A stretch of 64,000 bases of DNA, from positions 2,405 to 66,404 of the forward strand of contig CAZWMG010000001.1 in assembly GCA_964634945.1 (NCBI GenBank), read 5' to 3'. This stretch comes from an uncultured Planctomycetia bacterium. Lineage in GTDB: Bacteria > Omnitrophota > Gorgyraeia > JABMRG01. Positions 6,058-23,323 of this stretch are shown here, one piece after another. A model generated the notes under the pieces. The model saw nothing but the letters and a program-made list of their open reading frames with translations, had not been told where the DNA came from and did no database searches. A program made the position numbers and the translations under genes. Within the stretch, counting starts at the first letter, position 1, and each line of letters starts with the position of its first letter.

Positions 6058-6095
6058 GACTCAATTGTTTTGCCCCTTACTTAGCTTGTAAAAAC

Positions 6096-6560
6096 TTACC
6101 AGTTCCTGTACGCGCCTTTAAATGTGCCTGTATATATGGCGTTGTTTTGCTCAGGTATCGTTATATTAAAACTTCCTTTAAATTTCTGCGGAATTCCCGC
6201 TTGATCCGGGGCGCTCAAGGTTATCTTGACAGGCCCTGTCGCGTGAAGCCCGGTGAATACGCAGGAAAAGTTACCCTCGATATTTATCCCGTTAGAAGAG
6301 CTTACAGCGCATCGTGCCACCCCTCCTACCATGTTGAGTGCAAGATCGCCCTCACGTTTTTTTGGATCCCATGTTAATCTTGCAGGCCCTGTTAAGAGAG
6401 GTGGATCCATTATACCCTTTACGCGTCCTTCGATACCGCCTGTGTATGTATATGTGGAGCCTGTAGACTTGGTATCCTCAGCAAAAGACGCGGAGCTTGT
6501 GGATACTATCGCGATAATTAACAAAGCAATAATACATAAAGACTTTTTCATGTGGATCAA
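6096..6560 (-). CDS. secreted hypothetical protein
   Basis: Signal peptide MKKSLCIIALLIIAIVSTSSASFA. Gly/Thr-rich with no recognised domain. Confidence 0.4.
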   Translation of the reverse strand: MIHMKKSLCIIALLIIAIVSTSSASFAEDTKSTGSTYTYTGGIEGRVKGIMDPPLLTGPARLTWDPKKREGDLALNMVGGVARCAVSSSNGINIEGNFSCVFTGLHATGPVKITLSAPDQAGIPQKFKGSFNITIPEQNNAIYTGTFKGAYRNW

Positions 6561-6695
6561 CCCCCATGTTTTTTCACGCTTTTGTTTTCTTAAGCGCTAT
6601 TTTTGTATATGATCACTTATAATTATACTAATAGTAGTATATGTATAGATAAGATACCAAGCAAAGCAGTATAGGTCAAGTGAAATGTTTCTATA

Positions 6696-9600
6696 TTACG
6701 CTGACTCCAGGACTAATTCCAATATCCTTTTGTATTCAACTATTGCATTCTGGATCTCTTCCGCGGTGACTATAACAGGCAGTATTTCGATTATGTAATC
6801 ACTTATGTAATCAGCCTGATTATCGTCAATCATATTGGCAAGGGCTTTTAGTGCCTGTGGCAATGATATAACCTTATCAGTAATAGAGCTTAGCTTTATC
6901 TTGGCAACTCTTATGCCGCGTTCTTTTAACATCGGCACATTATAGAGAGCATTGAATTCACCCTCTGTTTTATCTGTAATCGGATTTGCTACAATTCCTA
7001 TATTTGCTCTCTTAAGGCCAAGGCCCAATATGAGCCTAGTTTCGATGCCTGTAAGCGCTTTTATGCGCGCTGACCTGTCCTTTGCAGTTGCATCATAGAT
7101 ATCTTTGCCTAGTATTTCTTCCGATGATTTGATGGTATCGCATAGCTCAGATACGCCATATGCCTCCAGTAGTGACGCAAGTTCATCTTTGCTTATATCG
7201 AGTATCAGAGATGTCTTGGGCCTTCCATTTTCAGATAATATCTCAAAGGCTTCAAAGAGTTCACTTGGTATAACCTGCGCTGTGGCACCGAATATATTAC
7301 CTCTTTCTATTATATATGCTGATGGCCTTGAATGATCCATCTTACTTATCGTTGCGGCAAATTCGCTGACATGTTCAAAATCCAGCGGCGTATTAGTAGG
7401 GCTTATTACCTGTTTAGCGATAGCATTTATGTTGATTGCATCCTCTGATTGATCAGATACCTGAGAAAATGGTTTTATAATTCCTCCTGAACTGGATTTT
7501 TCAATAATGCCATTTTTAGGTGGTGCTTGCGCGATAAATGGTTCTGCGTCATCCGTATACTCCAGCACGTATAGGGCAGCTGCATTGGGAACGAAAAATG
7601 CACGCATAGGATTTCCCTTTATATCCCAAATGCCTCGAGGGCGAATGTTAGGAGACTCGAATTCTTCTTCAACTATGCTTTTAAACTTAAAGCCACGGAA
7701 GTATACCTCAGTAAAGGGTGTTTTTTTTCTTCTATTCAAATAATTTTTAAACATCTTTAGATCGTTTTTATCTAAGATTAATAATTTATCCCCTTCCTTG
7801 AAGTGCTTACTAAATAATTCATCAAAGAACTCATCGATCTCAGATATATCTTTATCGAGACTCAAAAAATGAAAAAAGCCCTTTAAGATCAAGATTCTTC
7901 GTTGATCGGGATACTTAGGATCGTTAAAAGCTTGAATGTAATTACTTACATCTAAGGCCTCCTGTGATATAGGTGGCGCTTTTTTATTATTCTCCCGGGC
8001 AGCATCAAGAATGAGGTTCTTGTCAGTTATCTTTGCGAATTCTGTAAACATACTATAACCGCGCTCAAGGTCATTAGGGTCATCGTTAATAGGCAATGTT
8101 TTCATACATATCTGTGGAATAACATCGATACCTCTCAGAGGATATAAAAGTATATACTTTTCTCCAAAGATTGATGACAGCTCTTTCCAAAAATTGTAAT
8201 AGTCTGTTATTGCCCGTTGTTTTAAGCCCTTGTCTTCAATCAAGTTTCCATCTTTAATCCCTGTTTTTCCATTACGTTTTTCATGTAAAGAATTTATTTT
8301 TTCACACTTAGTTTTGTATTTCTTTATCGCTTTTGTAGCTTTTTTAACATCCCTTACCTTTTTGTCAAATGGCAATATCTTTGAAAATGTCTTAAATAAT
8401 GCGATCTCTGTTCTTATTGATTCAGCTTGTTTTGTTGTGACTTTTTTCTCTGACTCTCCCGCAGTCATTGCAAGTAAATTAGGCATAGCCTCATATTCTG
8501 CTTGATATTGATTAATTGCTTTCCGAGTGTTCTCTTTATGCGGCCCACTACTAGTTTCTGTTATCAATGGCGTTGTGCCGCTCGAGCTGGATTTTTTAAT
8601 CTCAAGATATCGCAAAGGAATACTTAGCGTAACTTCCGATTCTTTATTCTTATCTGATGGTTTTTTACTATCAACAAGATCCAGTTCAAGAGCGCCCTTG
8701 TTTTTTATGGCCTTATATATAATATTGAGGGCTTCTCCATTGCCCCCGCTATAAAAAACATTATTTGTGTACATGAGTTCTTGCTTGCGCGTGGGGAGCC
8801 TCTTGTCCTCTCCTCGCCCATTATCAGTAACTCTTACCACAAAGCATGTTTCATTGTTGCTTGTCTCTATATCAAATGATATTGCTATTTTGCCGGAATA
8901 ATTATCAATAGGCCTCTCTTCTTTAGGCGTTATTGCCGGATCATAGAAAGAGCCAATGCTGTCATAAGCATTGCCCAATAGCATATTTATCATATCATAA
9001 AGATTTTGTCCCCATTTTTGACCGGGGATAGTTACCTGCAGCATTTCAAGTAAATGCGCTACTTCTTCATAGAATTTTTCAATCCTGCTGTAGCATCCAT
9101 TATAATCCTGAAGGTCAAGGTTGTTATCAAGGCTTATCCAATACTCACCATTATTATCCTGTATGCGCCCAACACTATCTATAAACCTTCGCAATGAGGC
9201 CCCTACTCTGCTTGGAATATGCGCTTTGCCTCCGGCGGCCTTAGATAGAGTACTATCAATCGGGGTTAAGGTTTTCTCAAAAACAGCCGCCGCGTTGGGA
9301 AATATAAAAACACGCCTAGGCCGGCCATTTGTATCATAAATGTTCTGCGGCTCGCTCTCAAAAGTTCTAAAGCTATTCTCAATTATTTTTGTGAATTCAA
9401 AGTTTTCTGATGATATAGATCTTTGCGGGCTTTGAGCGCGTTTATCTAAATAATTCTTAAACATAATTAAGTCATCTTGATTCAAGATTAGTACCTTATC
9501 ACCATCTTTAAAATATTTACTGAATAGGGTATCTAAGAAATCTTCTATTTTTTCGATGCTATTGCCATGATACATTAAAAAATAAAAAAAGCCTTTAAAA

Positions 9601-12600
9601 ATCAACACCATTTTCTGTTGATGACTCTCATTAAATGCACGTATATAGTTATAGGATTCTAACGCCTCGCGCGACATAAGCGGCGGCGCCTGAGAGTTTT
9701 TTCTACCAGCATCTATAAGCAGTTTTTTATTGTCAGTATCCGCTAATTCAGAAAAAAGGCTATAGCCGCGTTCAGTATCATTGGGGCCATTGTTAATAAC
9801 AAAGGTTTTCATAAACATCTGAGGGATGACATCAATTCCTCTGAGAGGGTATATAAGCATATGCCCATCGCCTAATGCAGATGAGAATTGTTCCCAAAAA
9901 TCATAATAGTCCGTAACAGCCCTTTTCTTCCGGCTCTTTTGTTTTATCGTGCCTTTTTTCGCGTTCTCTCCGGCGGTAATTCTAAGATAATTAGACATAG
10001 ATTCATATTTTTCCTGATATAGATCAATTGCTTTTTGAATATTCTCTTTTACTTGACCTGATGATGAAGATTTTGACAGCTCTGCTTCTCCAATCTTCCC
10101 TTGGTTTATATCAATCCCGTATTCCAGTAATTGCTTATTATGTATTGTGCCGATATAATTAAGGCGCTCTTTAAATTCCATTAAAGAGGTTGCGAGCCGG
10201 TTGTAGAGGTTTGCATCCTTAAGATCGCTTTCAATCTTATTTAGCATAAAATAGATCTGGGCAATTTTCCTTATGCTATTTTCCTCACCATTTACACTCT
10301 TTAGGTTATAAATAAATTCAGCAGCATGCCTCTGCATACTTTTTGTTGTAATATCAGTAACAATTATTTCAAAGAACGATTTAAGCGGGTTAAATTGGGA
10401 GTGAAAGTCGATACCTAACATATTGCAGACAATATGGCCTAAAAACTTGCGCTTTAGGTAATTGCCTGTTTCTATTCCCTCAATGTAATTAAGGAATTCA
10501 TGAATGGGCGCCATCCCCGCTTTTGTTTTTGGCCAGTCAATCGGTATAATCGCGATATGGCTGTTTGTGCTTGTTAAATCAGTAAGTATCTCAGGGATTT
10601 CTTGAGGTTCATAATCCCCGTTGCCAGCTGAAGATGCTTTTACCTGAATGGCTGCCTCTTGTATCCGCAAACCGCTAATTTGCAATGTACCAAGCGGAGG
10701 ATGCATCAATTTGGCCGGCCTTAAGAAGGGCTGTTGTATGGATTTATTTTTGCCAAGCGGAAAAAGCTGATTGTCTCTTACGGATACTGGTTTTCGGCTA
10801 GTTCTAAAGGGTATCTTCATGTCTTCCGGTACAGGTATTATCAGGCAGGGGTTTTCAACATCGAAGAGGTTTTCGTCCTCTTCTATTTGCATTAGATCGC
10901 CTACTGTAAGAGGCGCGTTTTTTCTCGCATATATCTCCTTGAGCCTTTTTGTTAACAATGTTCCGTACGCGGTTTGATCAAAATCTGCTTCAGAAAAAAC
11001 TATGGGTAATTTTTGAGAGGGCGCTTTAGCTTGTTTTTGTTTAAGGTACTCCAATAGATTGGTTATGTAATCATACGAGAAGCAACTCAAATTCAAAAAT
11101 ATGACATTGTCTAGATCGCCCCTGTTAATAAGCGCCCTGCCAAGGTTGTTGAAGCCTATATTTTCGCTGCCTAAGGTTATCACCTTTTTGTTACCATGCC
11201 CCCTAAATACAAGAGTCAGGGGCCCCTTTGAGTCTGATATTTCATCTAGAACAGCCCCCCTTATATGCCTTCCTTTATGGTATGATATTCTTATTGGATC
11301 TGCTCCTGAGCTAAGTTCTATATTTTTTAACTCTTTCATATCAGAGTCAAATCTATTTTCATTGTTAAATACATTAATTATCCGTCTTTCTTTTGAAAAG
11401 AGCTCAGTCTTTAATATGGGGTGCGACCTTAATTTTAAAATAAAGTCAGTTGCTTTTTTGATGTCATAAATATTACCCATGTCTCTGTTGTACTGGAGTA
11501 GTAATCTGTAGGCTATTTGAGCAATAGAGTATCTCGTTATCTCTGTCTCATGCTTTGTTCTATCTTGAAAATATTTATTAAAATATATATTTTTGCACCA
11601 AAAACCGTGTTCATCAACCTGCTTAGGAAGCCTGGATGCCATATCTGCTCTGGAGCCAGGAGTGATAAGCTCAGGCCTTTCCTGCTTTATGTTCTTTAAG
11701 GCACTTATTAATGGTTTATAAGTAGGCCTGTCAGCGCCACCCATGCCTAAAATAGCTTCCAGAGTATTTACGATTGAAGGTGTAATAGATTTTATATTTA
11801 CAATTGTAACTCTCTCTAGAATATGCATTAATAGACTATATGCCTCATCATCCATGTGCAGTTTTTGTAAAGCAGATTCTATGGCCAGTATTGTTGATCT
11901 CCGGAAAAGATCGGCATTTAGAGATGCTATATCTCGAAAAGCGAACAATATGGTTTTGGGCGATACGTCACTTAAAGCGAGATTGCTTAACGCCTCTTCT
12001 AAAACTAAAAGAGCATTACGTTTTAATGGTGATTTCGACAAGGATATGCCTTTAAGGGCATCCACTGCAGCGTCATATGAAAGTGGGTTTAATCCGTTTT
12101 TGTTCATAATGGATTTTAACGCAAGAAGAGCCTCATTACTTAAGGCGCCATTGAGCAATACTATATCAGCCAATGTATTTACCGCGGCTTGATAGGATTC
12201 TACATCCAGGCCGGGCCTTGCAAGCGTAGATTCCAGGGTTATGATTGTTGAAAACCGAGGTGGGTCAGACCGGCCAAAAATGACATCTGATACGGCATAT
12301 AGCAGTATACCGTTAGTTTCTGAATTCAAATTTGCATCATTTAGTAGTGATTCTAAAGCAGAATAGGCCCTGTTGCTGAGACTGGAATCTGATAATGCAA
12401 TATCTCTTAATCCACCTACAGCTTTTTTGTGGTTGGCATTAGTATCGCTTTTAAGCATGTCTTCTTTTAAAGCGGCAACGATAGAATAGTTGTCCAGATC
12501 TTTCATCTCGTCGAATTGAACTGCAGCCTCTTTCTCTTGATAATAGCGATCAATGGCTATCTGCCCAAACCAGTCAAAGGGTATCAGCGCGATAACACCA

Positions 12601-14975
12601 AAAAGCAGCATGCTTAATAAGAGCGGCTTTCTATTTTTTTTGTACCTTGTTAATTTATACGCATTATTAAACAGAGAAAACGTTTCTATGTAATCGTAGG
12701 TTTTTTTCGTCTGCGTTATACCTGATGAGGATGTTTTGGTATTAGTATATCGCGGGACAACCGGGGCTGATGCGTCTCTTTGCCAAGGCTCTGTAGTAAA
12801 ATCATAGCCTATTGTTTTATTTTTACCGCAATCTTCATTTGATTGCGCCTCTTCGGGTGTGAGCATGTAGATAACAGATCTTATCCCGGTAGAGATGAAC
12901 CAAAACTGGCCAAGTGATAATGCAGGCAGAGCACACAAGAAAGAAGCTCCAATTATGGCAGGCAGTATTTTCCTTTTAAGTAGGAGCTTATATCTTGAGA
13001 AGCCACCCTGATTTTTAGTTGGAATTATATCTTTTAGCGGCTTATCTGTATCTATTGGGTATTTTGTTACAGTAGTACTGTTGTTTTGTTCTGAGAGTCC
13101 GCTTGATGATGCCTTAGAAAGTTCGAGACCTTCTTGAAGCATGCGTTTCTCAAACCAATTATCTCCGTTTATGAGTCTCTGTGTTTCAATCCAGTCTCTT
13201 AAAAATTCTTCCTCTTCTGAAAACCTTTCTTCAACTGTATTCGCGTATTCAGTGTCTGCCAAATCACCGGTATTAAGCGCCCCTACAAGCATATTGCTTA
13301 TGAAGTTAAGGATTGCGCCGGATTCTGGCATCTGGTTCAGCATCTGTCTTTGATACACTACTTCCTTACAGTTACTAGAGCCTATCTTTGGGCATATTAC
13401 GATGTAGGATACATCCAGTTTTTTTAGAATATTTACGATTCCTCGGGTATGAAAGCCGCCTGTGACAAGTATGCTTGAATCTTTTCCTTGAATAGCCATT
13501 CTACGCAAAGTGTTACTTATTAAGGCCTCATCTCTTTTTAGCGCTATTTGGTAGTAATGCAAGGCACTTTTATAGGCTGTTTTCTCAATAGAAGGGGGTG
13601 ATATTTTAATCTCTATGTTGTAGTATTTATTCTGACTGTTAATAAAAGATATTACCTCTGCGATGCTTATCTTCCCATGAAGAGCCATTAGCTCGTTTAA
13701 ATTATTTTCTGTAAGCTCTAATTTATATAGGTCAATACTTAGCTGTATGTATCTTATGTACCCATCAAAGAGCCTTTCTGTTTCGTTATTATAATGCAGA
13801 GCTCTAAGCGCTTTTAGAAGAGCGCCTATTTCATCAAATAGGCCCAGGCTATCTACGCTACCGGAAAGCCTTATATACTCAATATAATCAAATAGGTCCC
13901 TATAGTCAGCCCTGCCTAACAAGTCTGCGTTCAGGCCTATAATATGTTCAATATATTCATAGTAAGCAGACGCGCTTATCTTTTCCAGCTTTAGGTCAAT
14001 GCTGTTTTTAAGAAGTCTGTTTAAATCTTCGTTTTTAAGAATTTTTGATAGCTCTTTGACAAGGCCGTCTCTCTGTCTCTCTGCTTTCTTAAAGTCTATG
14101 CCATTTTTAAGAGACGCGGCTTGAGAGAATGCCTCAAGGCTTGGGTGGGCAGATATGTCCATATCGTTTTTCGCGGCCTCTTTTATGATAAACGACACAT
14201 ATTCTTCTAGTTGCAGATGTTTATTTTTATACGCCTCTTCCTTCTGATCTATTACTTTCAGAGGCATAGAGAAGATATAAGGTTTTAAGGCATTTAGATT
14301 GCTTTTTAGAGCCTGTAGGCAGACTATTATCTCTTTTTCATCGGCATTGTGTTTCCTATATGCCTTTACATGCTTTTTATATAGCCCCTTATCTTCTACT
14401 CCATATGCTTTTATTCCTTTGCCGGGATTTAGTATCTTATAATATTCCGGACCCGTAAAGAGCCCTTCCTGTAAAAAGAATTTAGAGGTTAGTTCTTTTG
14501 CTTGCGTTTTTGGGAACTGGTCATAGTGAGAGGTGTTCAGTTTATTAGATGCGCCTTCAAGGCATAATAAGCCTATATCATAATTCTCTTCTATCGTGGA
14601 AATAATATCTGCTATATTGAGTTGAGCTGTTGTATTGGCGTGGCAGTCTTGTATATGTACTATCAGGCCCTTGGACTTGCCTTTATAACTATATAATACA
14701 TTGCCAAGTTGCGCAGGCACTGTGAGCTTTAAGGCTTGTTCATCCTTCAGTAAATCATCTTTAAGAAAGCGCTGGGCATGGGAATTCTTAGAGAATAGAG
14801 TCCTGCCCCCCATTGCGTATGCGCCGGATGAATTTATGCTATAACATACAAGTATAATTATACTTATAATACGCAAAAAAAGTCTATTATTGGATTTTTG
14901 TTCTATAGGCATAGTTGTGTAGTTATTTATATGTTTATCATATGTTTTATAAAGTATAGCATAACTATACATCAA
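6696..14975 (-). CDS. giant multidomain membrane protein (2759 aa). Has an N-terminal signal/anchor, internal TM helices, HEAT-like repeats, a tandemly duplicated ~210-aa module and a GHKL-type ATPase-like motif set.
   Basis: Uninterrupted 8.3-kb ORF. N-terminal hydrophobic segment LFLRIISIIILVCYS. TM helices ILPAIIGASFLCALPALSLGQFWFI and LLLSMLLFGVIALIPF. Duplicated module AVTDYYDFWEQF...FIFPNAAAVF at about 9280-9925, repeated as AITDYYNFWKEL...FFVPNAAALY at about 7580-8215. GHKL boxes: N-box LLGNAYDS, G1 VTDNGRG (confirmed in DNA at 8811-8825) and G2 SGGNGEALNII. SSSSG linkers recur. Confidence 0.65.
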   Translation of the reverse strand: MMYSYAILYKTYDKHINNYTTMPIEQKSNNRLFLRIISIIILVCYSINSSGAYAMGGRTLFSKNSHAQRFLKDDLLKDEQALKLTVPAQLGNVLYSYKGKSKGLIVHIQDCHANTTAQLNIADIISTIEENYDIGLLCLEGASNKLNTSHYDQFPKTQAKELTSKFFLQEGLFTGPEYYKILNPGKGIKAYGVEDKGLYKKHVKAYRKHNADEKEIIVCLQALKSNLNALKPYIFSMPLKVIDQKEEAYKNKHLQLEEYVSFIIKEAAKNDMDISAHPSLEAFSQAASLKNGIDFKKAERQRDGLVKELSKILKNEDLNRLLKNSIDLKLEKISASAYYEYIEHIIGLNADLLGRADYRDLFDYIEYIRLSGSVDSLGLFDEIGALLKALRALHYNNETERLFDGYIRYIQLSIDLYKLELTENNLNELMALHGKISIAEVISFINSQNKYYNIEIKISPPSIEKTAYKSALHYYQIALKRDEALISNTLRRMAIQGKDSSILVTGGFHTRGIVNILKKLDVSYIVICPKIGSSNCKEVVYQRQMLNQMPESGAILNFISNMLVGALNTGDLADTEYANTVEERFSEEEEFLRDWIETQRLINGDNWFEKRMLQEGLELSKASSSGLSEQNNSTTVTKYPIDTDKPLKDIIPTKNQGGFSRYKLLLKRKILPAIIGASFLCALPALSLGQFWFISTGIRSVIYMLTPEEAQSNEDCGKNKTIGYDFTTEPWQRDASAPVVPRYTNTKTSSSGITQTKKTYDYIETFSLFNNAYKLTRYKKNRKPLLLSMLLFGVIALIPFDWFGQIAIDRYYQEKEAAVQFDEMKDLDNYSIVAALKEDMLKSDTNANHKKAVGGLRDIALSDSSLSNRAYSALESLLNDANLNSETNGILLYAVSDVIFGRSDPPRFSTIITLESTLARPGLDVESYQAAVNTLADIVLLNGALSNEALLALKSIMNKNGLNPLSYDAAVDALKGISLSKSPLKRNALLVLEEALSNLALSDVSPKTILFAFRDIASLNADLFRRSTILAIESALQKLHMDDEAYSLLMHILERVTIVNIKSITPSIVNTLEAILGMGGADRPTYKPLISALKNIKQERPELITPGSRADMASRLPKQVDEHGFWCKNIYFNKYFQDRTKHETEITRYSIAQIAYRLLLQYNRDMGNIYDIKKATDFILKLRSHPILKTELFSKERRIINVFNNENRFDSDMKELKNIELSSGADPIRISYHKGRHIRGAVLDEISDSKGPLTLVFRGHGNKKVITLGSENIGFNNLGRALINRGDLDNVIFLNLSCFSYDYITNLLEYLKQKQAKAPSQKLPIVFSEADFDQTAYGTLLTKRLKEIYARKNAPLTVGDLMQIEEDENLFDVENPCLIIPVPEDMKIPFRTSRKPVSVRDNQLFPLGKNKSIQQPFLRPAKLMHPPLGTLQISGLRIQEAAIQVKASSAGNGDYEPQEIPEILTDLTSTNSHIAIIPIDWPKTKAGMAPIHEFLNYIEGIETGNYLKRKFLGHIVCNMLGIDFHSQFNPLKSFFEIIVTDITTKSMQRHAAEFIYNLKSVNGEENSIRKIAQIYFMLNKIESDLKDANLYNRLATSLMEFKERLNYIGTIHNKQLLEYGIDINQGKIGEAELSKSSSSGQVKENIQKAIDLYQEKYESMSNYLRITAGENAKKGTIKQKSRKKRAVTDYYDFWEQFSSALGDGHMLIYPLRGIDVIPQMFMKTFVINNGPNDTERGYSLFSELADTDNKKLLIDAGRKNSQAPPLMSREALESYNYIRAFNESHQQKMVLIFKGFFYFLMYHGNSIEKIEDFLDTLFSKYFKDGDKVLILNQDDLIMFKNYLDKRAQSPQRSISSENFEFTKIIENSFRTFESEPQNIYDTNGRPRRVFIFPNAAAVFEKTLTPIDSTLSKAAGGKAHIPSRVGASLRRFIDSVGRIQDNNGEYWISLDNNLDLQDYNGCYSRIEKFYEEVAHLLEMLQVTIPGQKWGQNLYDMINMLLGNAYDSIGSFYDPAITPKEERPIDNYSGKIAISFDIETSNNETCFVVRVTDNGRGEDKRLPTRKQELMYTNNVFYSGGNGEALNIIYKAIKNKGALELDLVDSKKPSDKNKESEVTLSIPLRYLEIKKSSSSGTTPLITETSSGPHKENTRKAINQYQAEYEAMPNLLAMTAGESEKKVTTKQAESIRTEIALFKTFSKILPFDKKVRDVKKATKAIKKYKTKCEKINSLHEKRNGKTGIKDGNLIEDKGLKQRAITDYYNFWKELSSIFGEKYILLYPLRGIDVIPQICMKTLPINDDPNDLERGYSMFTEFAKITDKNLILDAARENNKKAPPISQEALDVSNYIQAFNDPKYPDQRRILILKGFFHFLSLDKDISEIDEFFDELFSKHFKEGDKLLILDKNDLKMFKNYLNRRKKTPFTEVYFRGFKFKSIVEEEFESPNIRPRGIWDIKGNPMRAFFVPNAAALYVLEYTDDAEPFIAQAPPKNGIIEKSSSGGIIKPFSQVSDQSEDAININAIAKQVISPTNTPLDFEHVSEFAATISKMDHSRPSAYIIERGNIFGATAQVIPSELFEAFEILSENGRPKTSLILDISKDELASLLEAYGVSELCDTIKSSEEILGKDIYDATAKDRSARIKALTGIETRLILGLGLKRANIGIVANPITDKTEGEFNALYNVPMLKERGIRVAKIKLSSITDKVISLPQALKALANMIDDNQADYISDYIIEILPVIVTAEEIQNAIVEYKRILELVLESA

Positions 14976-15076
14976 ATATGCTCAAAAGTCAATTATTTTT
15001 GGGATTATCTGTAAAATTCCACAGGCATGGGATGATACTATGTAATAGTATACAAGGTATCTTCTGCTATTACCTG

Positions 15077-15463
15077 CTATGTTTTATTGCGCGGCTTCTT
15101 TCTACTATGTTTTTTGCTGACTATGTAATCTTCCAGTTCTTCAGGAGTCGATATCATAACATCGTAAAATTTGCCGAATTTCTCGCAATCCGGTGGGTTG
15201 TGCTTTCTGCAGATATCCGGGCGTCGTTCGTATATTGTGCACTTATTGTCCTTTGATAGATACCTGCATGCACTCTTGATCCATTGATACCAATGATGAT
15301 GCCTTATGTATATCTTAACATGAGTGAAATGAAGCTGCCACTTTAGATCATCTATCTCTTTGCGGTTAGCTGGCTTGCCTATTGCCAGAGCAAGATTCTT
15401 GCAACATATCGCGGGACAGCTTCTGCAATGCTTATCATGTGGAACGCCTGGTTTTCTTTTCAT
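15077..15463 (-). CDS. YkgJ-family (UPF0153) cysteine-cluster protein, putative Fe-S/Zn-binding
   Basis: Carries the CxxCxxCC signature as CRSCPAICC. Further conserved Cys occur in CRYLSKDNKCTIY and CRKHNPPDCEKF. Confidence 0.55.
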   Translation of the reverse strand: MKRKPGVPHDKHCRSCPAICCKNLALAIGKPANRKEIDDLKWQLHFTHVKIYIRHHHWYQWIKSACRYLSKDNKCTIYERRPDICRKHNPPDCEKFGKFYDVMISTPEELEDYIVSKKHSRKKPRNKT

Positions 15464-15703: not shown

Positions 15704-16258
15704 CTAATACCAGAGATCCTTGTAAGCGCTGGTTTGATACTCTTTTTTGCCATCAGAATCATAAAACTCATCTGTCCTGCCGCTTAATTCAAGCGGCGGC
15801 GAGTACTCCTCCTCCGGATTAGGGTCATTGTCTCCTATGTATTGCCTGTCAATTAAATCACCTGATCTATTGTATATTCTGCGCTCTATCATTTTTTTAT
15901 CCGCACCATATGTAGTATCTGAGGCAAGCCTACCACCTATATACGTGCGCTTAATAGCTGCCCAGTCATCGACAGGGTCTCTGCATAATTTTCCATCAGT
16001 GCCATAGTAGCTCTCTTCAATCTGATTGCCATCTGTGTCAAACTTTTCAAATTTTTCCAGGCTGCCATCTTCACGATAGAAAGTCTTATTTACTATGTTT
16101 TCATGACCATCATAAGCTGTTTTCTCTCTAATCTTTTTATTGTCCCAATAGGCATCCTTCTCAGATTGGGCATATACGAAGTCAGGATAGGTATAAATTA
16201 TAGTCACTAAAACACAAGAAAGAATTAAAAAGGTTATATGCTTTGGTACTATGCTCAT
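15704..16258 (-). CDS. secreted protein with MORN-variant (YwqK-like) repeats
   Basis: Signal/anchor MSIVPKHITFLILSCVLVTIIYT. Repeated Y/F-x-x-DG-x-L-type units: FYREDGSLEKFEKFDTDGNQIEESYYGTDGKL and FYDSDGKKEY. Confidence 0.4.
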   Translation of the reverse strand: MSIVPKHITFLILSCVLVTIIYTYPDFVYAQSEKDAYWDNKKIREKTAYDGHENIVNKTFYREDGSLEKFEKFDTDGNQIEESYYGTDGKLCRDPVDDWAAIKRTYIGGRLASDTTYGADKKMIERRIYNRSGDLIDRQYIGDNDPNPEEEYSPPLELSGRTDEFYDSDGKKEYQTSAYKDLWY

Positions 16259-16378: not shown

Positions 16379-19300
16379 TTAGGCAGCGGAGGCTATTCTT
16401 TTTAAAGACGCATTTGCGCGGATTAACTCACGTACCCTGGGGAGGCTTTTACTTGGGTTTTCTCTTTTGTCAGGCAGGATATCAACATTGAATTCGCTAT
16501 TTGATAAAGCCTTTTCTTGACTACGAGGCATTGATAGCCCGGATGATGAGGACTTTGCATATATATCCTCGTATTGCTCATATATTCCCGCCTCTTGAGA
16601 TAAGAGGTATGCTTCCTGTTGATATATTGCAGGTTCAGCTGCGCCGCTATCATATAGATAAGCGCTCATTAATGAAGCGTTTTCTATTGCATCCGGGATA
16701 ATATCTATAAACGATGTGTTACTATTTGATATGGTATTATCTAGGCTTAGAGGCCTTTTACCAAGGGCAAGTTCTATGGACTCGGTATCGTAACCTCTGT
16801 CGACAAAAGCCAAATCTATTTCTGCGGAGGAGGGGCTAGTGCCGTGCGCAAGCTTGTATTCCCTGATAAAGATACCTATCTCTTTTCTTGCGCGTTTGAG
16901 GCTCTCCGGAAACGCGCTATAGTAATGTAACACTGGCACAAAGCGTAGAGATGAAAAGAGGTAAGATCTGTAGTCAGATTCCCCTATTTCACCAAGTAGC
17001 ATCTTGTGATAAACGTTAAAGTCTGTACTTATGCGCAGAAGAAGCTCCGCAGCAATAGAGAATTTATCTGTATCATGATAACAGCTCAGAGTGTCAGCGT
17101 AATTCTCAATTAATTTATCACGGACTTTTCTTCTTACATTTGCGTCAAAAGAGAAGAGCAGAAGCCCAGCCGTTACGTGCTCTTGATCGGATAGCTTTTC
17201 TTTTTCCAAGAAAGGCATAAGAGTAGCCACATCTTCAGTAACTCGTTTTGCTATATAGCTATTCAACGTTCTAATCTTACCGCTATCTTTATACAGGGTG
17301 TCAATGATTAAAAAAAGAACCTTTTGATGGATATTCCGCAATAACAGCCTGAATTCGATGTACTTTTCATCGTCTTCGGTAAAAGGCTTTTTAAATGAGG
17401 GCAACTCTCCTCTTCGCTTATATATATATTCTAATCCGTTTATCAGGTAATCCGTATTAGCTACTAGTCTTGCAACCAAGGCATCTGAAAATCCATGGCC
17501 GTTATTATCTTTAGTAGAATCCAACAATATCTTTGCGAGTAATTCTATCTCTTTTTCTGTACGCGAGCTTTGAAGTATGAGGGTGATATGCACGCCCTTT
17601 TTCATGCCAAGAGCTTTAAGCGTTTTTATTATCCTCACTATTTCCTCTTCATCGCGGGAACTTAGAAGTATTCTGGCAATATGAGTAGGATTCTTTATCT
17701 TTAGCGAATAAAGCTTTTTTACTATATCTTTTATCTCCTTCTCCTTGCGTGATGTATAAAGTATAGTGGTGATATGAGAGTTCTCTTTTATATTAAGGGA
17801 TATGAGCAATTTGATAATCCTTTTTATCTCTTCTCTGTCACGGGAGCTGCGAAGTACCATACTAATGTGACCATGATCCTTTATGTCAAGGGATCTGAGT
17901 AATTTGATAACTCTCTCTATTTCTTCTTCATCGCGAGAGCTGCGAAGCGCCCTAGCGATATGAACAGAGTCTTTTATCCCCAGTAGATAGAGTTTATTTA
18001 TTATATCTTTTATCTCTTTCTCCTTGCGCGAACTCTGAAGTATCGTGGATAGATGAGTGTTTTCTTCTATACCGTGAGCTCTAAGCATCTCGATTATCCT
18101 CTCTATCTCTTTTTCTTTGCGTGCGCTCTGAAGTATCGCGGTGAGATGAGAGCTCTTTATTATGCCAAGGGATTTGAGTAATTTGATGACTCTCTCTATT
18201 TCTTCTTCATCGCGGGAGCTATGAAGCGCCCTAGCGATATGAACAGAGTCTTTTATCCCCAGTAGATAGAGTTTATTTATTATATCTTTTATCTCTTTCT
18301 CCTTGCGCGAACTCTGAAGTATCGTGGATAGATGAGTGTTTTCTTCTATACCGAGAATTCTAAGCGTCTCGACTATCCTCTCTATTTCTTCTTCATCGCG
18401 GGAACTTAGAAGTATTCTGGCAATATGAGTAGGATTCTTTATCTTTAGCGAATAAAGCTTTTTTACTATATCTTTTATCTCCTTCTCCTTGCGTGATGTA
18501 TAAAGTATAGTGGTGATATGAGTACTTTTTTCAATGCCGAGAGCTTTAAGCGTTTTGATAATACGCTCGATCTCTTTTTTGTCTCGGGAAGTAGATAGTA
18601 TGCTGGCGATATGAGAACCGGTAAATATGTTATCGGAGCTGACATTGCGAAGTAACAAATAGCGAAATATGCCAAGCCTTCGCTCAAGTTTAATGAGTTT
18701 AGCTATCTTTTTTGCTTGGCTTTCGTTAAATATCAATCTTTCACCTATCGACAACCTCAGTAATGTTTCTACTATAATCGGATTTATGTGTTTTCTAAGC
18801 ACTGTCTTGCCATCCACGCTTTGTAGGAGTTGATGTATTCTACTTAGCATTTGGTCAACTGTTACGACCTCTTTAGGCCTAGTAGTAGCAATTGATAAAG
18901 TCCCGGATGATGAGGGCTTTGCATATATATCCTCGTATTGCTCATATATTCCCGCCTCTTGAGATAAGAGATATGCTTCCTGTTGATATATTGTGGATTC
19001 AGCTGCGCCGCCATCATATAGATAAGCGCTTATTAATGAAGCGTTTTCTATTTGATCCGGGACAAGATCCATAAGAGGAGTGTTGCTATTGGATGCGGCT
19101 CTGTCCAGGCTTAGTGCGCTTTTACCCATGGCGCGCATTATTGATTCTTCTTCATAACCTCTCTTGGAGAATTCATACAGAATGCTCAACTCTGAAGGCT
19201 CAGTCTCATGTGTTAATGTAAATTCCATTATATATTTTCTTATATATCTTCTAAGAGGTAGGAGGCTTTTCGGTAGGTCACTATAAAAATTTCTTTTATA

Positions 19301-22300
19301 GGCAAAACGTAATGATGTATCAAGATAGGTCTTGTACTTTGATTCATCAGCCTCACCCGCTAACATTCTAGCATAAATGTTGTATCTATTGACTGTATGC
19401 GCTAGGATCTCACCTGCAACAGAAAGCAAGCCTACATTATTGTTGTATTTATACATAACATGCTCGTAGTTTTTGACGAATATAGCGGAAGCTCTTTTTC
19501 TTATATCCGCGTCAAAGCTAAATAGTAAGAGTCCGGTTATGGTATGGTCGTTTCCGAATAATCTGCGCCTTGACTCTAGAGTAACGAGCTTGTCCGTGTC
19601 TTTAGAAATTTGCATATTTATAATATTCCTTAAGCTTACTGTTTTTTCGTTTGGCCCATATATTGTATCAATAATTGAGAAGATAACTTTTTTATTCAGA
19701 TCTCGCAGGAATAACCTGAATTTAATGTAGAGCTTATCTTTTTTGGTAAAAGGTTCTTCAAAAGATGGTAGCCTTCCTTCACGATTTAAAAGATGGTCAA
19801 AACCTTTGTTAAGGAAAACAGGACTGGAAAGCACTTTAGCTATTTTGGCATTTGTGAGCTTATGACCATTATTTTTCTTGATATAGGTTATAAGTGTTTC
19901 AGCAAGGCCACCTATCTCTTTTTCCTTCCAGGAACTTTGAAGCAGTTTAGTTATCTGAATATTCTCTTTAATGCCTATTGATATAAGCTTATTAACCAGC
20001 CTGTCTATCTCATCTTCAGGCCGGGATGTTAAAAGTATGCTTGATATATAAACATCCTCTTCTATGCCTAGCGATCTGAGATTTTTTATTATCCGTTGTA
20101 TCTCCTCTACATCACGGTCAGACTGGAGTATCTTTGCAATGGTATGCCCGCCTTCTATTTTAAGCGCATTTAGCTTTTTGATTATTGTCTCTATTTCTCC
20201 ATCTTCGTGGGCACTCATCGTAACCATTTTAATGTAGGCGCCATTGTTTATGCCGTATGATGCTAAGATTTTTATAATAGATTCAATCTCTGATAGTGCG
20301 CGTGGACTCTGAAGCATCCTTGTAATATCTGTATTTGCAAATGTGAAGCTATCACCACTACGTAAAAGAAAAAGATAGCGGAATGTTTCTAGTCTATCCC
20401 CAAGTTTGCGTACCTTCGCTAATTTTTGCGCTTGTTTAACACTAAATAAGGGGGTTTCATCTCTTGAAATTTGGAGCAGTATTTTTTTCAATGCTGGTTT
20501 TATATCCTTTCTTAATACCCTCTTGCCATCTATGGTCAGAAATGCATCACGAATTTCCTTTAAAACCCGGTCTGCTTGGTCAGCGTTTCTCTGATCCTTA
20601 TTTCCTGAAATAAGCCCTGCCGACGATGACCTTGCGTATGAGTCTGCGTCCACGCGCTGGCCATATGCCCCTGCCTCCTGAGACAATAAATATGCTTCAG
20701 GCGCATATATCTCAGGGCCATATGCGTCGTCGTCACCATATAGATAATTGTTTAATGAAGGACTTTCTACCTTATCAGGTATAAAATGCGATAACGGAGT
20801 ATCCCCATTGTTGATTGACTGGTCCAGGCTCAAAGACTCTTTGCCGAGAGCATGTTTGATTGCCTCAATATTGTAACCCCTGTTGGTAAATTCTAAGTAA
20901 ATATCGTTGATAGTCGCCGGGTTTTGATACGTAAATTTAAATTCTTTTAAAAAAGCACTTATCTCTTGTTTGACTCTTTTTACACTTTCAGGTAAAGAAT
21001 TGTAGTGATTAGTCAGGCTTACAAATCGGAGTGAAGAATAGAGGTAGGTTTCAAAAGCTGACGGCCCGCTATCGCCTGTCATAGTGCCATGATAGATATT
21101 ATATTGAGCACTTACTCGCAGAAGGGTTTCCGCCGCGATAGAGATATTATCGTCGTCATGATACTGATCTAGTATGTAAGCAAAGTTTTCAACCAATTTA
21201 TCGCGAACCTGCTGTCTAATATTAGTGTCAAATGAAAAGAGCAAGAGTCCGGCGGTGACATGATCATCTTCAGATAGTTTTTGTTGTGATTGTAGAAGAT
21301 CACGTTTATCTTTGTCTTCGGTAATCCTCGCTTTTATATAAGCCTTTAGTGTTTTAGTCTTACCACTTTTTTCATATAGGGTATCTATAATGGAAAAGAT
21401 AGCTTTTTTATTAAGTTTTCGTAAGAACAGCCTGAATTCAATATACTTTTTATCAGTAAGAGGTCTTGCAAATGAAGGCAATTTACCTTTATGTTTATAG
21501 ATATATTCTAGCCCTTCTACCAGGTATGCTGGGTTGGCTACTAATTTAGCGATTAGAGAGTCTGGAAGTCCGTAACCATTGTTCTCTTTCGCGCAAAGCA
21601 TCAAGACCTTGGCGAGATCTATTATCTCCTTTTCAGTGCGCTTGCTACAAATCACCTTAGCGATATGGCCCTTATCTTCTATGCCCAGTCTTGTAAGTTT
21701 CTTTATAATTCTTTCAATCTCATCTTGGTTGCGTGAGCTATGAAGCATCAGGGCAAGATGAAAGTTGTTCATTATTCCCAGTGATCTAAGTTTTTCAATA
21801 AACGGCCCCAACTCCTCTCTTTTTCGCGCGCTTTGAATAATTATAGTGATATGATGAGGAGTTTTTATACCAAGCGATTTGAGTTTATTAGCAGTCTTTA
21901 CAATATCCTCCTTATTCCGAGAACACCCTAGTATGAGGCTGATATAAATATTCCTGTCTATGCCTAGTGTTCTAAGCCCATCGACGACATATCCTATATC
22001 TTCTATGCTGTGGGTTCCCCGCAGGATTAAGGTAATATCACGTGGATTTTTAATTTTGATATCTTCAAGGGCCTTGATAATCCGCTCTATGTCAATTTCT
22101 TTGCGTGAACTCTGAAGTATCTTAACTATCTGAAGGCTGTCCTTGATATTAAGAGACATAAGCTTATTTATGATCCTTGTCATCTCCTCTTCATCACGTG
22201 AACTTTTAAATGCCTCAGCTATATGAGCGCGATTTTGTATTTTTAGAGTAATAAGGGCTCTAATAAGAGACTCTATCTCTATCTCATCGCGCGAACATTT

Positions 22301-23323
22301 AAGAATAATGGCCTTATGAGCTTCTTCCTTCATGTTGAATGAGTTAAGTATTTTATCAATTGGCTTTAACTCTGTTCTGTCTCGGGAGCTTCCCAGGATA
22401 GAGACGATAAGTGTCTTATTTTCTATGCCTATAGCCCTAATCTCTTTTACGGTTTTTTCTATATTTTCGTCATCGCGTGAGGTCTGAAGTATCGTAACGG
22501 CATGAACGCTTTTATCCAGGCCTAAGGATACAAGTTTATCAAGAGTATTGACTATATCTTTTTTGGATCGTGAGCAACGCAGTATTTTGGATATATGGGA
22601 ATTGTTTTCTATCGAATGTGATCTTAGCTTCGTTATCAGTGGTTTTATGTCAGCTTCCTTACGAGAGCCCTGAACTATCACGGCAATATTTGTGCCTTTT
22701 TTAATATTTAGCGATTGAAGCTCTTTTACGATTCTTACTATTTCATCATTATCACGTGAACTCAGCAATATTTTGGCTATATGAGCACCATTTCTAATAT
22801 TAAATGCATGAAGCCTTCTAATGAGTGCTTCTATCTTTGTTTTATCGCGTGCACACTGAAGTGTCATAGCTATGTGTGAACCAGTAAACGTGAAATCTTT
22901 ATTATCACCATGCAGTATTAGATAGTTAAGGGTATTGAGCTTATCCTCGAGCTTACGTATACGTGATATCTGTTTTGCCTGCACTTTGGTAAAGAATGGC
23001 TTTTTGCCTCTGTTGAAATTTAGCAATATCTTTACAATATCAGCATCTATTTGGGCTCTTTTTATGATTTTACCATCAACGCTCTGTAGGAGAGCACGTA
23101 TTTTAGCTATTGTCTGGTCAACCCTTACTACATATTCTTGCTTTTTTTTGCCTGTTAAGAGTTCCAGATCTGCGTTTGTATTAAAAACACTTGCCATCGG
23201 CCTTAATGTGTCGGATTTGGACAGAAAATAGCAATCCCCTGCTATATAAAGATCTAGACTATTGCATAGCATAGCTAAAACAAGAAATATTATATACATT
23301 TTAAAATACTTTATTTTGTTCAT
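16379..23323 (-). CDS. giant secreted repeat protein (2314 aa). Three homologous super-modules, each with a leader, an array of 31-residue helical repeats and a ~330-aa conserved C-terminal domain.
   Basis: Signal peptide MNKIKYFKMYIIFLVLAMLC. About 31 repeats with consensus H-I-a-x-I-L-x-S-S-R-x-x-x-E-I-x-R-I-I-K-x-L-x-x-L-G-I. Module ends are YLYDGGAAE..IYQQEAYLLSQEAGIYEQYEDIYAK-SSSSG, found three times (DNA about 20640-20780, 18900-19050 and 16500-16650). Confidence 0.7.
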   Translation of the reverse strand: MNKIKYFKMYIIFLVLAMLCNSLDLYIAGDCYFLSKSDTLRPMASVFNTNADLELLTGKKKQEYVVRVDQTIAKIRALLQSVDGKIIKRAQIDADIVKILLNFNRGKKPFFTKVQAKQISRIRKLEDKLNTLNYLILHGDNKDFTFTGSHIAMTLQCARDKTKIEALIRRLHAFNIRNGAHIAKILLSSRDNDEIVRIVKELQSLNIKKGTNIAVIVQGSRKEADIKPLITKLRSHSIENNSHISKILRCSRSKKDIVNTLDKLVSLGLDKSVHAVTILQTSRDDENIEKTVKEIRAIGIENKTLIVSILGSSRDRTELKPIDKILNSFNMKEEAHKAIILKCSRDEIEIESLIRALITLKIQNRAHIAEAFKSSRDEEEMTRIINKLMSLNIKDSLQIVKILQSSRKEIDIERIIKALEDIKIKNPRDITLILRGTHSIEDIGYVVDGLRTLGIDRNIYISLILGCSRNKEDIVKTANKLKSLGIKTPHHITIIIQSARKREELGPFIEKLRSLGIMNNFHLALMLHSSRNQDEIERIIKKLTRLGIEDKGHIAKVICSKRTEKEIIDLAKVLMLCAKENNGYGLPDSLIAKLVANPAYLVEGLEYIYKHKGKLPSFARPLTDKKYIEFRLFLRKLNKKAIFSIIDTLYEKSGKTKTLKAYIKARITEDKDKRDLLQSQQKLSEDDHVTAGLLLFSFDTNIRQQVRDKLVENFAYILDQYHDDDNISIAAETLLRVSAQYNIYHGTMTGDSGPSAFETYLYSSLRFVSLTNHYNSLPESVKRVKQEISAFLKEFKFTYQNPATINDIYLEFTNRGYNIEAIKHALGKESLSLDQSINNGDTPLSHFIPDKVESPSLNNYLYGDDDAYGPEIYAPEAYLLSQEAGAYGQRVDADSYARSSSAGLISGNKDQRNADQADRVLKEIRDAFLTIDGKRVLRKDIKPALKKILLQISRDETPLFSVKQAQKLAKVRKLGDRLETFRYLFLLRSGDSFTFANTDITRMLQSPRALSEIESIIKILASYGINNGAYIKMVTMSAHEDGEIETIIKKLNALKIEGGHTIAKILQSDRDVEEIQRIIKNLRSLGIEEDVYISSILLTSRPEDEIDRLVNKLISIGIKENIQITKLLQSSWKEKEIGGLAETLITYIKKNNGHKLTNAKIAKVLSSPVFLNKGFDHLLNREGRLPSFEEPFTKKDKLYIKFRLFLRDLNKKVIFSIIDTIYGPNEKTVSLRNIINMQISKDTDKLVTLESRRRLFGNDHTITGLLLFSFDADIRKRASAIFVKNYEHVMYKYNNNVGLLSVAGEILAHTVNRYNIYARMLAGEADESKYKTYLDTSLRFAYKRNFYSDLPKSLLPLRRYIRKYIMEFTLTHETEPSELSILYEFSKRGYEEESIMRAMGKSALSLDRAASNSNTPLMDLVPDQIENASLISAYLYDGGAAESTIYQQEAYLLSQEAGIYEQYEDIYAKPSSSGTLSIATTRPKEVVTVDQMLSRIHQLLQSVDGKTVLRKHINPIIVETLLRLSIGERLIFNESQAKKIAKLIKLERRLGIFRYLLLRNVSSDNIFTGSHIASILSTSRDKKEIERIIKTLKALGIEKSTHITTILYTSRKEKEIKDIVKKLYSLKIKNPTHIARILLSSRDEEEIERIVETLRILGIEENTHLSTILQSSRKEKEIKDIINKLYLLGIKDSVHIARALHSSRDEEEIERVIKLLKSLGIIKSSHLTAILQSARKEKEIERIIEMLRAHGIEENTHLSTILQSSRKEKEIKDIINKLYLLGIKDSVHIARALRSSRDEEEIERVIKLLRSLDIKDHGHISMVLRSSRDREEIKRIIKLLISLNIKENSHITTILYTSRKEKEIKDIVKKLYSLKIKNPTHIARILLSSRDEEEIVRIIKTLKALGMKKGVHITLILQSSRTEKEIELLAKILLDSTKDNNGHGFSDALVARLVANTDYLINGLEYIYKRRGELPSFKKPFTEDDEKYIEFRLLLRNIHQKVLFLIIDTLYKDSGKIRTLNSYIAKRVTEDVATLMPFLEKEKLSDQEHVTAGLLLFSFDANVRRKVRDKLIENYADTLSCYHDTDKFSIAAELLLRISTDFNVYHKMLLGEIGESDYRSYLFSSLRFVPVLHYYSAFPESLKRARKEIGIFIREYKLAHGTSPSSAEIDLAFVDRGYDTESIELALGKRPLSLDNTISNSNTSFIDIIPDAIENASLMSAYLYDSGAAEPAIYQQEAYLLSQEAGIYEQYEDIYAKSSSSGLSMPRSQEKALSNSEFNVDILPDKRENPSKSLPRVRELIRANASLKRIASAA
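17895..18360. repeat. near-identical ~180-bp direct repeats inside giant ORF 2 (17895-18075 and 18180-18360). Further copies at about 17590-17780 and 18330-18520.
   Basis: Read directly. The block atttgat(a/g)actctctctatttcttcttcatcgcg(a/g)gagct(g/a)(c/t)gaagcgccctagcgatatgaacagagtcttttatccccagtagatagagtttatttattatatcttttatctctttctccttgcgcgaactctgaagtatcgtggatagatgagtgttttcttctataccg appears twice, 285 bp apart (3 repeat units). Residues differ only at bracketed positions. Confidence 0.75.

Follow-up and report, generated by a model that had tools for sequence, protein, structure and literature searches.

A giant Omnitrophota gene with a TIKI-fold head and recurrent junction motifs may encode a modular polyprotein-like precursor

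Introduction

The giant proteins described from the Omnitrophota, which measure at least 10-30 kaa (thousand amino acids), tile unrelated domains along a membrane-anchored chain, frequently including HATPase_c domains. Cleavage of these proteins by C39 or S8 peptidase domains has been hypothesised, and the lack of known cleavage points prevented their being cut in silico (West-Roberts et al., 2023; bioRxiv 10.1101/2023.11.21.568195). A catalogue of 'multi-enzyme' long proteins makes no mention of cleavage, linkers, TraB or ChaN (Nielsen & Lui, 2026; bioRxiv 10.64898/2026.06.07.730766), and cleavage is not discussed by Seymour et al. (PMC10066038). The first two of these studies leave open whether giant genes encode single proteins or pieces to be cut apart. 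Here we analyse ORF1, an open reading frame (ORF) of 2759 codons at positions 6696..14975, on the minus strand, of a 64,000-nucleotide stretch of contig CAZWMG010000001.1 (hereafter the window), from a bacterium deposited as an uncultured Planctomycetia and assigned to the Omnitrophota by GTDB. ORF1 shares the phylum-level setting and the domain tiling of the published giant proteins, and at 2.7 kaa is far shorter.

Two further systems invite comparison. MARTX toxins carry glycine-rich repeats, are exported by type I secretion and are processed by an inositol hexakisphosphate (InsP6)-activated cysteine protease domain (CPD) that cuts after Leu. Like ORF1 they are very long polypeptides in which unrelated effector or enzyme modules are exchanged between strains, and they are cut in the linkers between modules by a protease domain of the same chain, which for ORF1 is proposed only. 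ORF1, however, has neither glycine-rich repeats nor a match to the CPD; its candidate protease is an N-terminal domain of TIKI fold (the head), and its junctions carry a strict hexapeptide, different from one lineage to the next, with cleavage as an inferred step. RRSP, a structural relative of this head, is itself a MARTX module (PMC6254334). Viral polyproteins (picornavirus, potyvirus, flavivirus) likewise combine several proteins in one ORF, separated by short, lineage-specific recurring sites with unrelated flanks, and encode their protease in the same ORF, a role for which ORF1 offers a candidate. They differ in that ORF1 is a chromosomal bacterial gene among housekeeping genes, with another protease fold and no capsid or replicase content.

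We propose that ORF1 encodes a modular precursor, resembling a polyprotein, that is processed at sites specific to its lineage, possibly by the head itself; judged from sequence patterns, this reading has in our view about an even chance of being correct. ORF1 belongs to the known class of long modular Omnitrophota proteins, within which its organisation as a head followed by punctuated modules is new and well supported as a sequence pattern. Neither a TraB/ChaN/TIKI-like head nor a junction motif is mentioned in the text of West-Roberts et al. or of Nielsen & Lui, searches of the literature on Omnitrophota polyproteins and bacterial polyproteins returned nothing relevant, and no description of the head family or its junction motifs was found within the literature searched.

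Results and Discussion

A hexapeptide motif punctuates ORF1 and the neighbouring ORF2

An identical 2758-aa protein (P0001, in which residue numbers are one lower than those used here for the window) is encoded on 8 contigs from independent sequencing runs. ORF1, predicted earlier as a giant ORF, is therefore real and intact and not an assembly artefact. All coordinates below refer to the minus strand of the window.

The motif K-[AST]-S-S-[SA]-G, exemplified by the junction peptide ELSKASSSGLSE, occurs at six sites in ORF1. The first, KASSSG (aa 621-626; 13098..13115), directly follows the head and lies in a part of the structural model with a predicted local distance difference test score (pLDDT) <50. 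It is followed by KTSSSG (aa 747-752; 12720..12737), KASSAG (aa 1446-1451; 10623..10640), KSSSSG (aa 1635-1640; 10056..10073), a second KSSSSG directly after the GHKL ATPase domain (aa 2128-2133; 8577..8594), and the variant KSSSGG (aa 2493-2498; 7482..7499). These sites delimit the head, two membrane-anchored pieces (one short, one long), module D, a duplicated 'dark' module together with the GHKL domain, the second dark module copy, and module G. Three further sites are found in the adjacent ORF2 (16379..23323; 2314 aa), which lacks the head and is not homologous to ORF1. ORF2 consists of three paralogous units (40-45% identity), each with an array of 31-aa repeats and a C-terminal part of ~330 aa, and the units end in RSSSAG (20615-20632), KPSSSG (18902-18919) and KSSSSG (16538-16555). 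Shuffling predicts 0.003-0.009 motifs per protein, so that the observed enrichment is >500-fold, and no other ORF of the window contains the motif. In the flanks of related loci (~250 kb), it was found only in head-bearing ORFs and in one adjacent head-less ORF of 1022 aa.

The serine codons of the motif vary between sites (TCA, TCT, TCC, TCG, AGC), and selection therefore acts on the peptide; the same variation rules out an origin at the DNA level, such as a recombination site. A by-product of internal duplication was also rejected, since the flanks of the sites are unrelated except at the dark module copies and the ORF2 units.

Among 167 relatives of ORF1, 23 carry two or more sites, 93 in total. 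K (94%) or R, both serines and G do not vary in these sites, and their flanks show no conservation. In 17 of the 23, the first site comes right behind the head, at aa 552-628, and paralogues within one genome share the same motif type. Four of the modules (D, GHKL, dark and G) turn up elsewhere in the family, in other orders and with other partners, and their edges keep the motif whatever the neighbour. Thus, KASSAG stands behind the GHKL domain of P0085, where P0004 and P0005 have KKTSSS-type remnants; the dark module is preceded by KASSSG in P0002 and by KSSPGG in P0029; module D is preceded by KSSSAG in P0058 and P0086; and the junctions of module G read KSSSSG, RTSSSG, RTSSGG or KTSSGG, or the decayed KTSSSD and KTSSDS. 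Pfam domains of the relatives lie within single motif-delimited segments (P0034, HATPase_c in P0085, FHA in P0060); in P0034, for example, Metallophos (602-795) and HD (882-999) fall between sites at 565, 854 and 1162. At the level of sequence, then, the motif is module punctuation, real both statistically and comparatively, and ORF1 combines independently exchanged modules in one reading frame with short conserved sites at their junctions. Neither this punctuation nor the role of the N-terminal domain as the shared head of a large family had been noticed in the original prediction.

Other lineages of the head family carry recurrent motifs of their own, again with unrelated flanks and at 2-11 per protein. 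RSELR occurs 2-5 times per protein in P0011, P0017, P0024, P0025, P0028 and P0092, RSE[MV]R/RAEMR at 9 sites in P0027, RDPLHAGE at 6 sites in P0015, and [GAS][AS]SLG at 11 sites in P0023; DASGAAPQ is found in P0013 and GARLA in P0014. This lineage-specific pattern resembles, as far as sequence comparison can tell, that of sites co-evolving with a protease. RRSPAG is a further lineage motif, and P0105 is also listed among the motif-carrying members.

The motif can also be read without cleavage. ORF1 would then be a membrane-anchored multi-domain scaffold that stays in one piece, the motif an inter-domain linker or short linear motif, and the head an esterase or hydrolase with an external substrate, for example a prey or host envelope component. 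The motif serines could be phosphorylated or glycosylated, possibly as substrate of the embedded RsbW-like serine kinase, or the motif could dock a partner. It is indeed Ser-rich and lies in a predicted low-confidence, probably flexible region; the nearest structural relatives of the GHKL domain are Ser-protein kinases; and published work treats long Omnitrophota proteins as membrane-anchored multi-enzyme assemblies. However, a mere flexible linker would not hold K (or else R) and G over ~100 sites with variable flanks. Motifs of other lineages, such as RDPLHAGE, GARLA and RSELR, lack Ser/Thr or differ in their chemistry, leaving no shared modification, and the GHKL domain is absent from most motif-bearing relatives. 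We regard an uncleaved scaffold as possible, though doubtful.

The head has the fold and active site of the TIKI superfamily

The head (aa ~85-605; 13161..14723) had been tentatively recognised as a TraB/TIKI-like domain from two motifs, LIVHIQDCHANT at aa 104-115 and ILVTGGFHTRGIVNILKKL at aa 502-520. ORF1 itself does not match the superfamily models PF01963, PF04187 or PF05139 at E<=1. No Pfam model matched the head above threshold in the 27 family members scanned, 5 of the 27 weakly matching PF04187 (ChaN, 'Tiki superfamily'; best E 4.3e-4), and a head-domain profile retrieved nothing from PDB sequences. Fold comparison alone succeeded. An AlphaFold2 model built on a 27-sequence alignment (pLDDT 80.9; predicted template modelling score, 0.72) shows an alpha/beta core with a parallel beta-sheet (strands at 90-109, 135-138, 188-191, 499-505 and 521-528), split by an all-helical insertion of ~300 aa (195-495), with disorder from residue 614 on. 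Its closest structures, with their comparison scores, were Bcr136 (2qgm, 10.3), Bcr135 (2rad, 10.2), HopBA1 (5t09, 10.2), ChaN (2g5g, 9.7), a TraB-family protein (8bqs_DQ, 9.5), EreC (6xcq, 9.4) and RRSP (5w6l, 8.6).

The invariant residues of the head are D110-x-H112, E140, R481 and GG-F-H509; the full set in the 27-sequence alignment (18-57% identity), in P0001 numbering, is D109, H111, E139, G191, Y474, R480, G505, G506, H508, P528 and Y540. In RRSP, residues E3900, H3902, E3930, R4001 and H4030 are required for Ras cleavage and have been described as an active site shared by the TIKI family (PMC6254334). The D-x-H, E (+28), R and H (+28) of the head match this layout, the spacings being 28 and 28 as against 28 and 29 in RRSP and Asp replacing the first Glu. 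The catalytic constellation of the superfamily (acid-x-His, Glu, Arg and the second His in GxxH) is thus found in the head. On the predicted model, the head is a member of the TIKI/TraB/ChaN/erythromycin-esterase fold, an assignment that rests on fold and active site and not on sequence profiles and that bears out the earlier recognition at that level. It looks catalytically competent, as a peptidase or an esterase.

Some features set the head apart from its superfamily. Its first motif is Q-D-x-H instead of G-T-x-H or E-x-H, it carries the ~300-aa helical insertion, and it forms the N-terminal part of very long chains whose cargo varies, an architecture not found in the literature examined on the known TIKI-superfamily subfamilies. 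A paired amphipathic helix model, PAH_ZNF598, weakly matched 10 of the 27 heads (best E 4.2e-5) inside the insertion (aa ~300-350; window ~13925-14075), and may mark a peptide-binding helical sub-domain.

A large family of heads with shuffled cargo

A head profile searched against 1.84 billion cluster representatives matched 10,492 proteins at E<=1e-3, counted as clusters at 50% identity, and 7,432 at E<=1e-30. The 150 best of the 10,492, proteins of 519-7832 aa, all have a head that starts within the first 51 residues. In 28 homologues from a word-indexed search, similarity to ORF1 was confined to aa ~30-600 (22-60% identity) and the C-terminal parts were wholly different. These contained M48, ABC1, TPR, HD, ARMT1, PGM, UDPGP, PEP-utilisers, HATPase_c, Lactamase_B/Beta-Casp, Pkinase and Response_reg domains. 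On this sequence evidence, the head defines a large uncharacterised family and is the only component common to all of it. A genome scan with a 9-sequence core alignment of the head found two copies in each of three of the genomes sampled.

The head is preceded by an N-terminal hydrophobic helix, a signal peptide or signal anchor (aa 32-54 by hydropathy, 29-53 in the model; 14814..14882), which ends in an AxA-type site, AYA|MGG, followed by the conserved TLFxxxSHAQRFL. The same leader is present in homologues and in P0029, a 595-aa protein that has it (hydrophobic helix, SSGAYA, then K.AHAQRSL) without the head; leader and head are therefore separable. Behind its leader, P0029 carries an unknown domain, KSSPGG and one dark module copy (60% identical to copy 2 of ORF1).

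Giant ORFs of the head system tend to cluster, as on contigs L015 and L012 and as ORF1 and ORF2 do in the window. On L012, a contig of 10 kb, two head-bearing ORFs lie on the same strand from nt 464 onward. On L015, the head-less ORF of 1022 aa (nt ~5208-8273) carries two K-type motifs and, placed immediately upstream of a head-bearing ORF, mirrors ORF2.

Proposed processing of ORF1 as a precursor

Taken together, the strictness of the motifs, the freedom of their flanks, their position at the borders of shuffled modules, their lineage specificity and their sharing by non-homologous giant ORFs make them look like the protease sites of a polyprotein. The head is the first candidate for the enzyme because it is the only family-wide component and because its relatives include sequence-specific endopeptidases, RRSP and TIKI (PMC6254334). 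Cleavage at the motif, the head as cleaving enzyme and the membrane topology are what we infer from these patterns.

The predicted membrane helices of ORF1 bear on this question. Besides the N-terminal helix, which the original prediction did not mention, there are the two strongly hydrophobic helices that it did, at aa 670-691 (12903..12968, preceded by the basic cluster RYKLLLKRK) and aa 785-808 (12552..12623, preceded by RYKKNRK), all located by hydropathy. The first three motif-delimited segments, A, B and C, thus each open with basic residues and reach a hydrophobic helix after 30-45 aa, much as three separate proteins with signal anchors would. If the chain crossed the membrane three times uncleaved, the +5 cluster before helix 2 would lie outside, in breach of the positive-inside rule, and the ATPase would be outside the cell, which argues against a scaffold that remains in one piece.

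If ORF1 is such a precursor, its membrane or signal helix and conserved hydrolase head would be followed by six cargo segments, in the order small membrane segment, membrane-anchored helical-repeat protein with a globular domain, module D, dark module joined with a GHKL ATPase or serine kinase resembling RsbW, second dark module, and module G. Cutting into separate proteins would take place at the K-[AST]-S-S-[SA]-G of each junction, a recognition site specific to the lineage. The most economical protease would be the head, which would process ORF1 in cis and head-less neighbours, ORF2 among them, in trans.

Several observations weigh against this proposal. Hydrophobic helices within 80 aa after a motif occur at 6 of the 93 sites where 3.2 would be expected, so that a signal anchor after each motif was rejected as a family-wide rule and the topology argument rests mainly on ORF1. 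Cleavage of AYA|MGG as a Sec signal would leave the head in the periplasm and most junctions out of its reach; most of the cargo (in ORF1 the GHKL ATPase, in relatives also kinases and sugar-nucleotide enzymes) appears to be cytoplasmic. The TIKI superfamily also includes esterases (EreA/B/C) and the haem-binding ChaN, and the fold does not imply a protease. Some junction motifs have decayed (KTSSDS, KTSSSD), and P0003 has no motif after its GHKL domain. Several of the lineage motif patterns were chosen after looking at the data, and many relatives show no obvious exact recurring motif in a simple 4-mer scan.

Cleavage might instead be the work of a separate protease, whether the product of a gene at a different locus or part of a different module, the head serving for anchoring, export or as an esterase. 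ORF2 and the 1022-aa ORF of L015 carry the motif without a head, so a trans-acting enzyme is needed in any case, and several motif classes start with K/R (K-x-SS-x-G, RSELR, R-DPLHAGE), as would fit a protease with a basic P1 residue. Within ORF1, the candidate would be a GHG...SC pair, if this marked a clan-CD cysteine protease with Lys/Arg P1 specificity. The pair lies in an uncharacterised domain (aa 1131-1445; 10641..11585) that is 44-46% identical to P0002. FRGHG (aa 1257-1261) is followed after 37 aa by LNLSC (aa 1294-1298), the stretch up to LNLSCFS covering aa 1257-1302 (11070-11207). P0002 reads SGHG...LNLSCFS, and His and Cys are conserved between the two. We take this spacing to be about that of the His/Cys dyad of the caspase fold (clan CD), an assignment that could not be supported. 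Profile searches of aa 1131-1445 gave no match in Pfam or PDB at E<=10, so that the clan-CD protease is set aside and kept as a lead. Moreover, the segment was found in only ORF1 and P0002 among the 167 relatives and cannot be a general enzyme, and no conserved protease gene was found beside the head genes in the loci examined. In two related loci no conserved neighbour genes, such as a dedicated protease, were found, and the head is the only component present family-wide. A separate protease in the head's place is therefore, in our estimate, unlikely.

More tentatively, and with a probability that we put well short of even, the Omnitrophota and their relatives may use polyproteins on a large scale, with thousands of head-protease genes and their shuffled cargo being cut by the head, or by a co-evolving partner, at lineage-specific hexapeptides, and head-less ORFs in trans. 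In that case, the giant proteins of these ultrasmall Omnitrophota would be operon-like precursors and not single machines. If processing is real, it would represent a bacterial gene-expression strategy otherwise typical of RNA viruses and would widen the roles of the TIKI/TraB fold. For the question left by the giant-gene studies, the motif supplies concrete candidate cleavage sites and the head a candidate enzyme; the motif also provides a rule by which giant proteins can be divided in silico into pieces of a size suited to structure prediction.

The GHKL domain and the dark module

The GHKL/Bergerat ATPase domain, with two preceding helices, occupies aa ~1919-2127 (8595..9221). Its boxes occur in canonical order, the N box LLGNAYDS at aa 1999-2006, the G1 box VTDNGRG at 2049-2055 and the G2 box YSGGNGEALNII at 2075-2086, with GGNGEALNII inside. 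Searches of the whole of ORF1 against Pfam and NCBIfam gave only a sub-threshold HATPase_c match, and phmmer against PDB gave nothing. This HATPase_c match (aa 1992-2122; profile positions 6-110 of 111) scored 17 bits in the whole protein and 22.7 bits (E 1.4e-4) as a segment, under the gathering cutoff of 26.4, and three of the four orthologous segments match HATPase_c (best E 2.9e-6). A profile of the four segments retrieved the catalytic ATP-binding (CA) domain of YycG (E 0.004) and CheA from PDB. An AlphaFold2 model of aa 1641-2128 (7 alignment rows) had a pLDDT of 57 overall, 68-86 in the GHKL segment and 35-60 in the dark module. Foldseek searches with the GHKL part placed LvrB CA domains at the top (probability up to 1.0), and the Ser-protein kinases RsbW, SpoIIAB and SiaB are its closest structural relatives. 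P0004 and P0005 retain the N and G boxes, which are degenerate in P0003. No HisKA match and no receiver domain were found in ORF1, and the ~90 aa upstream of the GHKL domain contain no phospho-acceptor His that is invariant across the four segments. On these profile and model comparisons, the segment is a Bergerat-fold ATPase of the anti-sigma/serine-kinase type, nearest to RsbW/SpoIIAB, and not a canonical histidine kinase.

It differs from RsbW, SpoIIAB and SiaB in being embedded in a long chain behind the dark module, in its Pfam score under the gathering threshold, and in that no STAS/anti-anti-sigma partner or sigma factor is evident near ORF1.

In the original prediction, the histidine-kinase-like boxes and the absence of HisKA and receiver domains were described correctly, and the Bergerat fold proposed there agrees with the predicted structure. 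Of the two grounds for refutation named with that prediction, a lack of significant HATPase_c or TraB-like profile matches and a GHKL model without a Bergerat sandwich, neither refutes it. The boxes follow dark module copy 1 after ~95 aa, not immediately as stated. Nor is a GHKL ATPase in a long membrane protein unusual, as had been thought: HATPase_c is among the commonest Pfam domains of long Omnitrophota proteins, found in 136 of 779 Pfam-positive ones (bioRxiv 10.64898/2026.06.07.730766). Implicit in the same account was a single large membrane sensor or signalling protein, with a TraB-like extracellular domain and a HEAT-like scaffold acting on an unorthodox GHKL kinase as output. Among the parts that it requires, the TIKI-like and GHKL domains and the hydrophobic helices are all real. 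However, the dimerization and histidine phosphotransfer (DHp) domain is missing, as are the phospho-acceptor His upstream and the receiver. The GHKL domain is one shuffled cassette among many, absent from most members and with degenerate boxes in P0003, and punctuation motifs stand between the parts, which recombine independently of one another. A single sensor protein is accordingly very improbable.

The dark module is present as copy 1 at aa 1685-1903 (9267..9923), which reads TDYYDFW...FPNAAA, and copy 2 at aa 2254-2473 (7557..8216). The duplication had been noted before at about 55% identity; the measured values are 46% over 256 aa (E 4e-81) and 50% over a 219-aa core. Profile searches against Pfam and PDB found no significant relative, and a homologue search with segment E (aa 1641-2128) found P0029 only.

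Other cargo modules

Homologues in other proteins exist for the N-terminal domain, the GHKL segment, the dark module, segment D and the C-terminal domain; these features of ORF1 are therefore not due to chance. Module D comprises aa 1452-1634 (10074..10622). The tail module G (aa 2499-2759; 6699..7481) is a conserved C-terminal module, being the last also in P0002-P0006 and P0030 (42-49% identity). A profile of it found no significant relative in Pfam or PDB (CapG, a UDP-GlcNAc 2-epimerase, at E 0.12, is not significant), and a homologue search returned two fragments only, from very short contigs.

A helical repeat array follows the third hydrophobic helix (aa ~830-1100; 11676..12488), with about 7 units of a ~39-aa period, and is HEAT/ARM-like by periodicity only. 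Autocorrelation peaks lie at 39/40, 79 and 118 aa; those at 79 and 118 exceed all 200 shuffles, and that at 39/40 is just under the highest shuffle value. P0002 contains a homologous array, with register-shifted alignments. No Pfam HEAT/ARM profile matched, so that of the earlier description as a HEAT-like array the periodicity holds and profile support is lacking.

Gene start and genomic setting

ORF1 is annotated from a TTG, with its stop at 6696-6698. A promoter-like TTGACT-17-TATAGT (14964..14992), a consensus match only, overlaps the annotated TTG/ATG start; it is the top sigma-70-like match in the region (10/12), where such sites are not more numerous than in shuffles. Homologues begin at a Met equivalent to M22 (MPIEQK). 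Because of this overlap and the start of the homologues, the true start is probably, to judge from the sequence, the ATG at 14912 (aa 22), the annotated one being off by 21 codons.

The window has a GC content of ~0.40, with essentially all genes on the minus strand, and the neighbours of ORF1 are ordinary bacterial genes (DEAD-box helicase, MatE transporter, WYL regulator, GMP-synthase-like protein, metallophosphatase, tRNA-Ala). ORF1 homologues with a source name are all from Candidatus Omnitrophota, except one from Elusimicrobia, and the genome records with close relatives are metagenome-assembled genomes either of Omnitrophota or labelled 'uncultured Planctomycetia/Planctomycetales'.

In ORF2, the 31-aa repeat reads HIAKILxSSRDxEEIxRIxKxLxSLxIxxxx, and the units end in YLLSQEAGxY...YA[KR]xSS[SA]G. 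Its only Pfam matches are scattered ones that reach or barely exceed the gathering score (Exog_C, 37.4 bits; Radical_SAM, 29.5 bits) and are probably spurious. Between ORF1 and ORF2 lie two small ORFs, at 15077-15463 and 15704-16258, which encode a 128-aa CxxCxxCC (PF03692) protein and a 184-aa protein without a Pfam match; on L001 and L002, two independent contigs, ORF1 is preceded by these same two ORFs.

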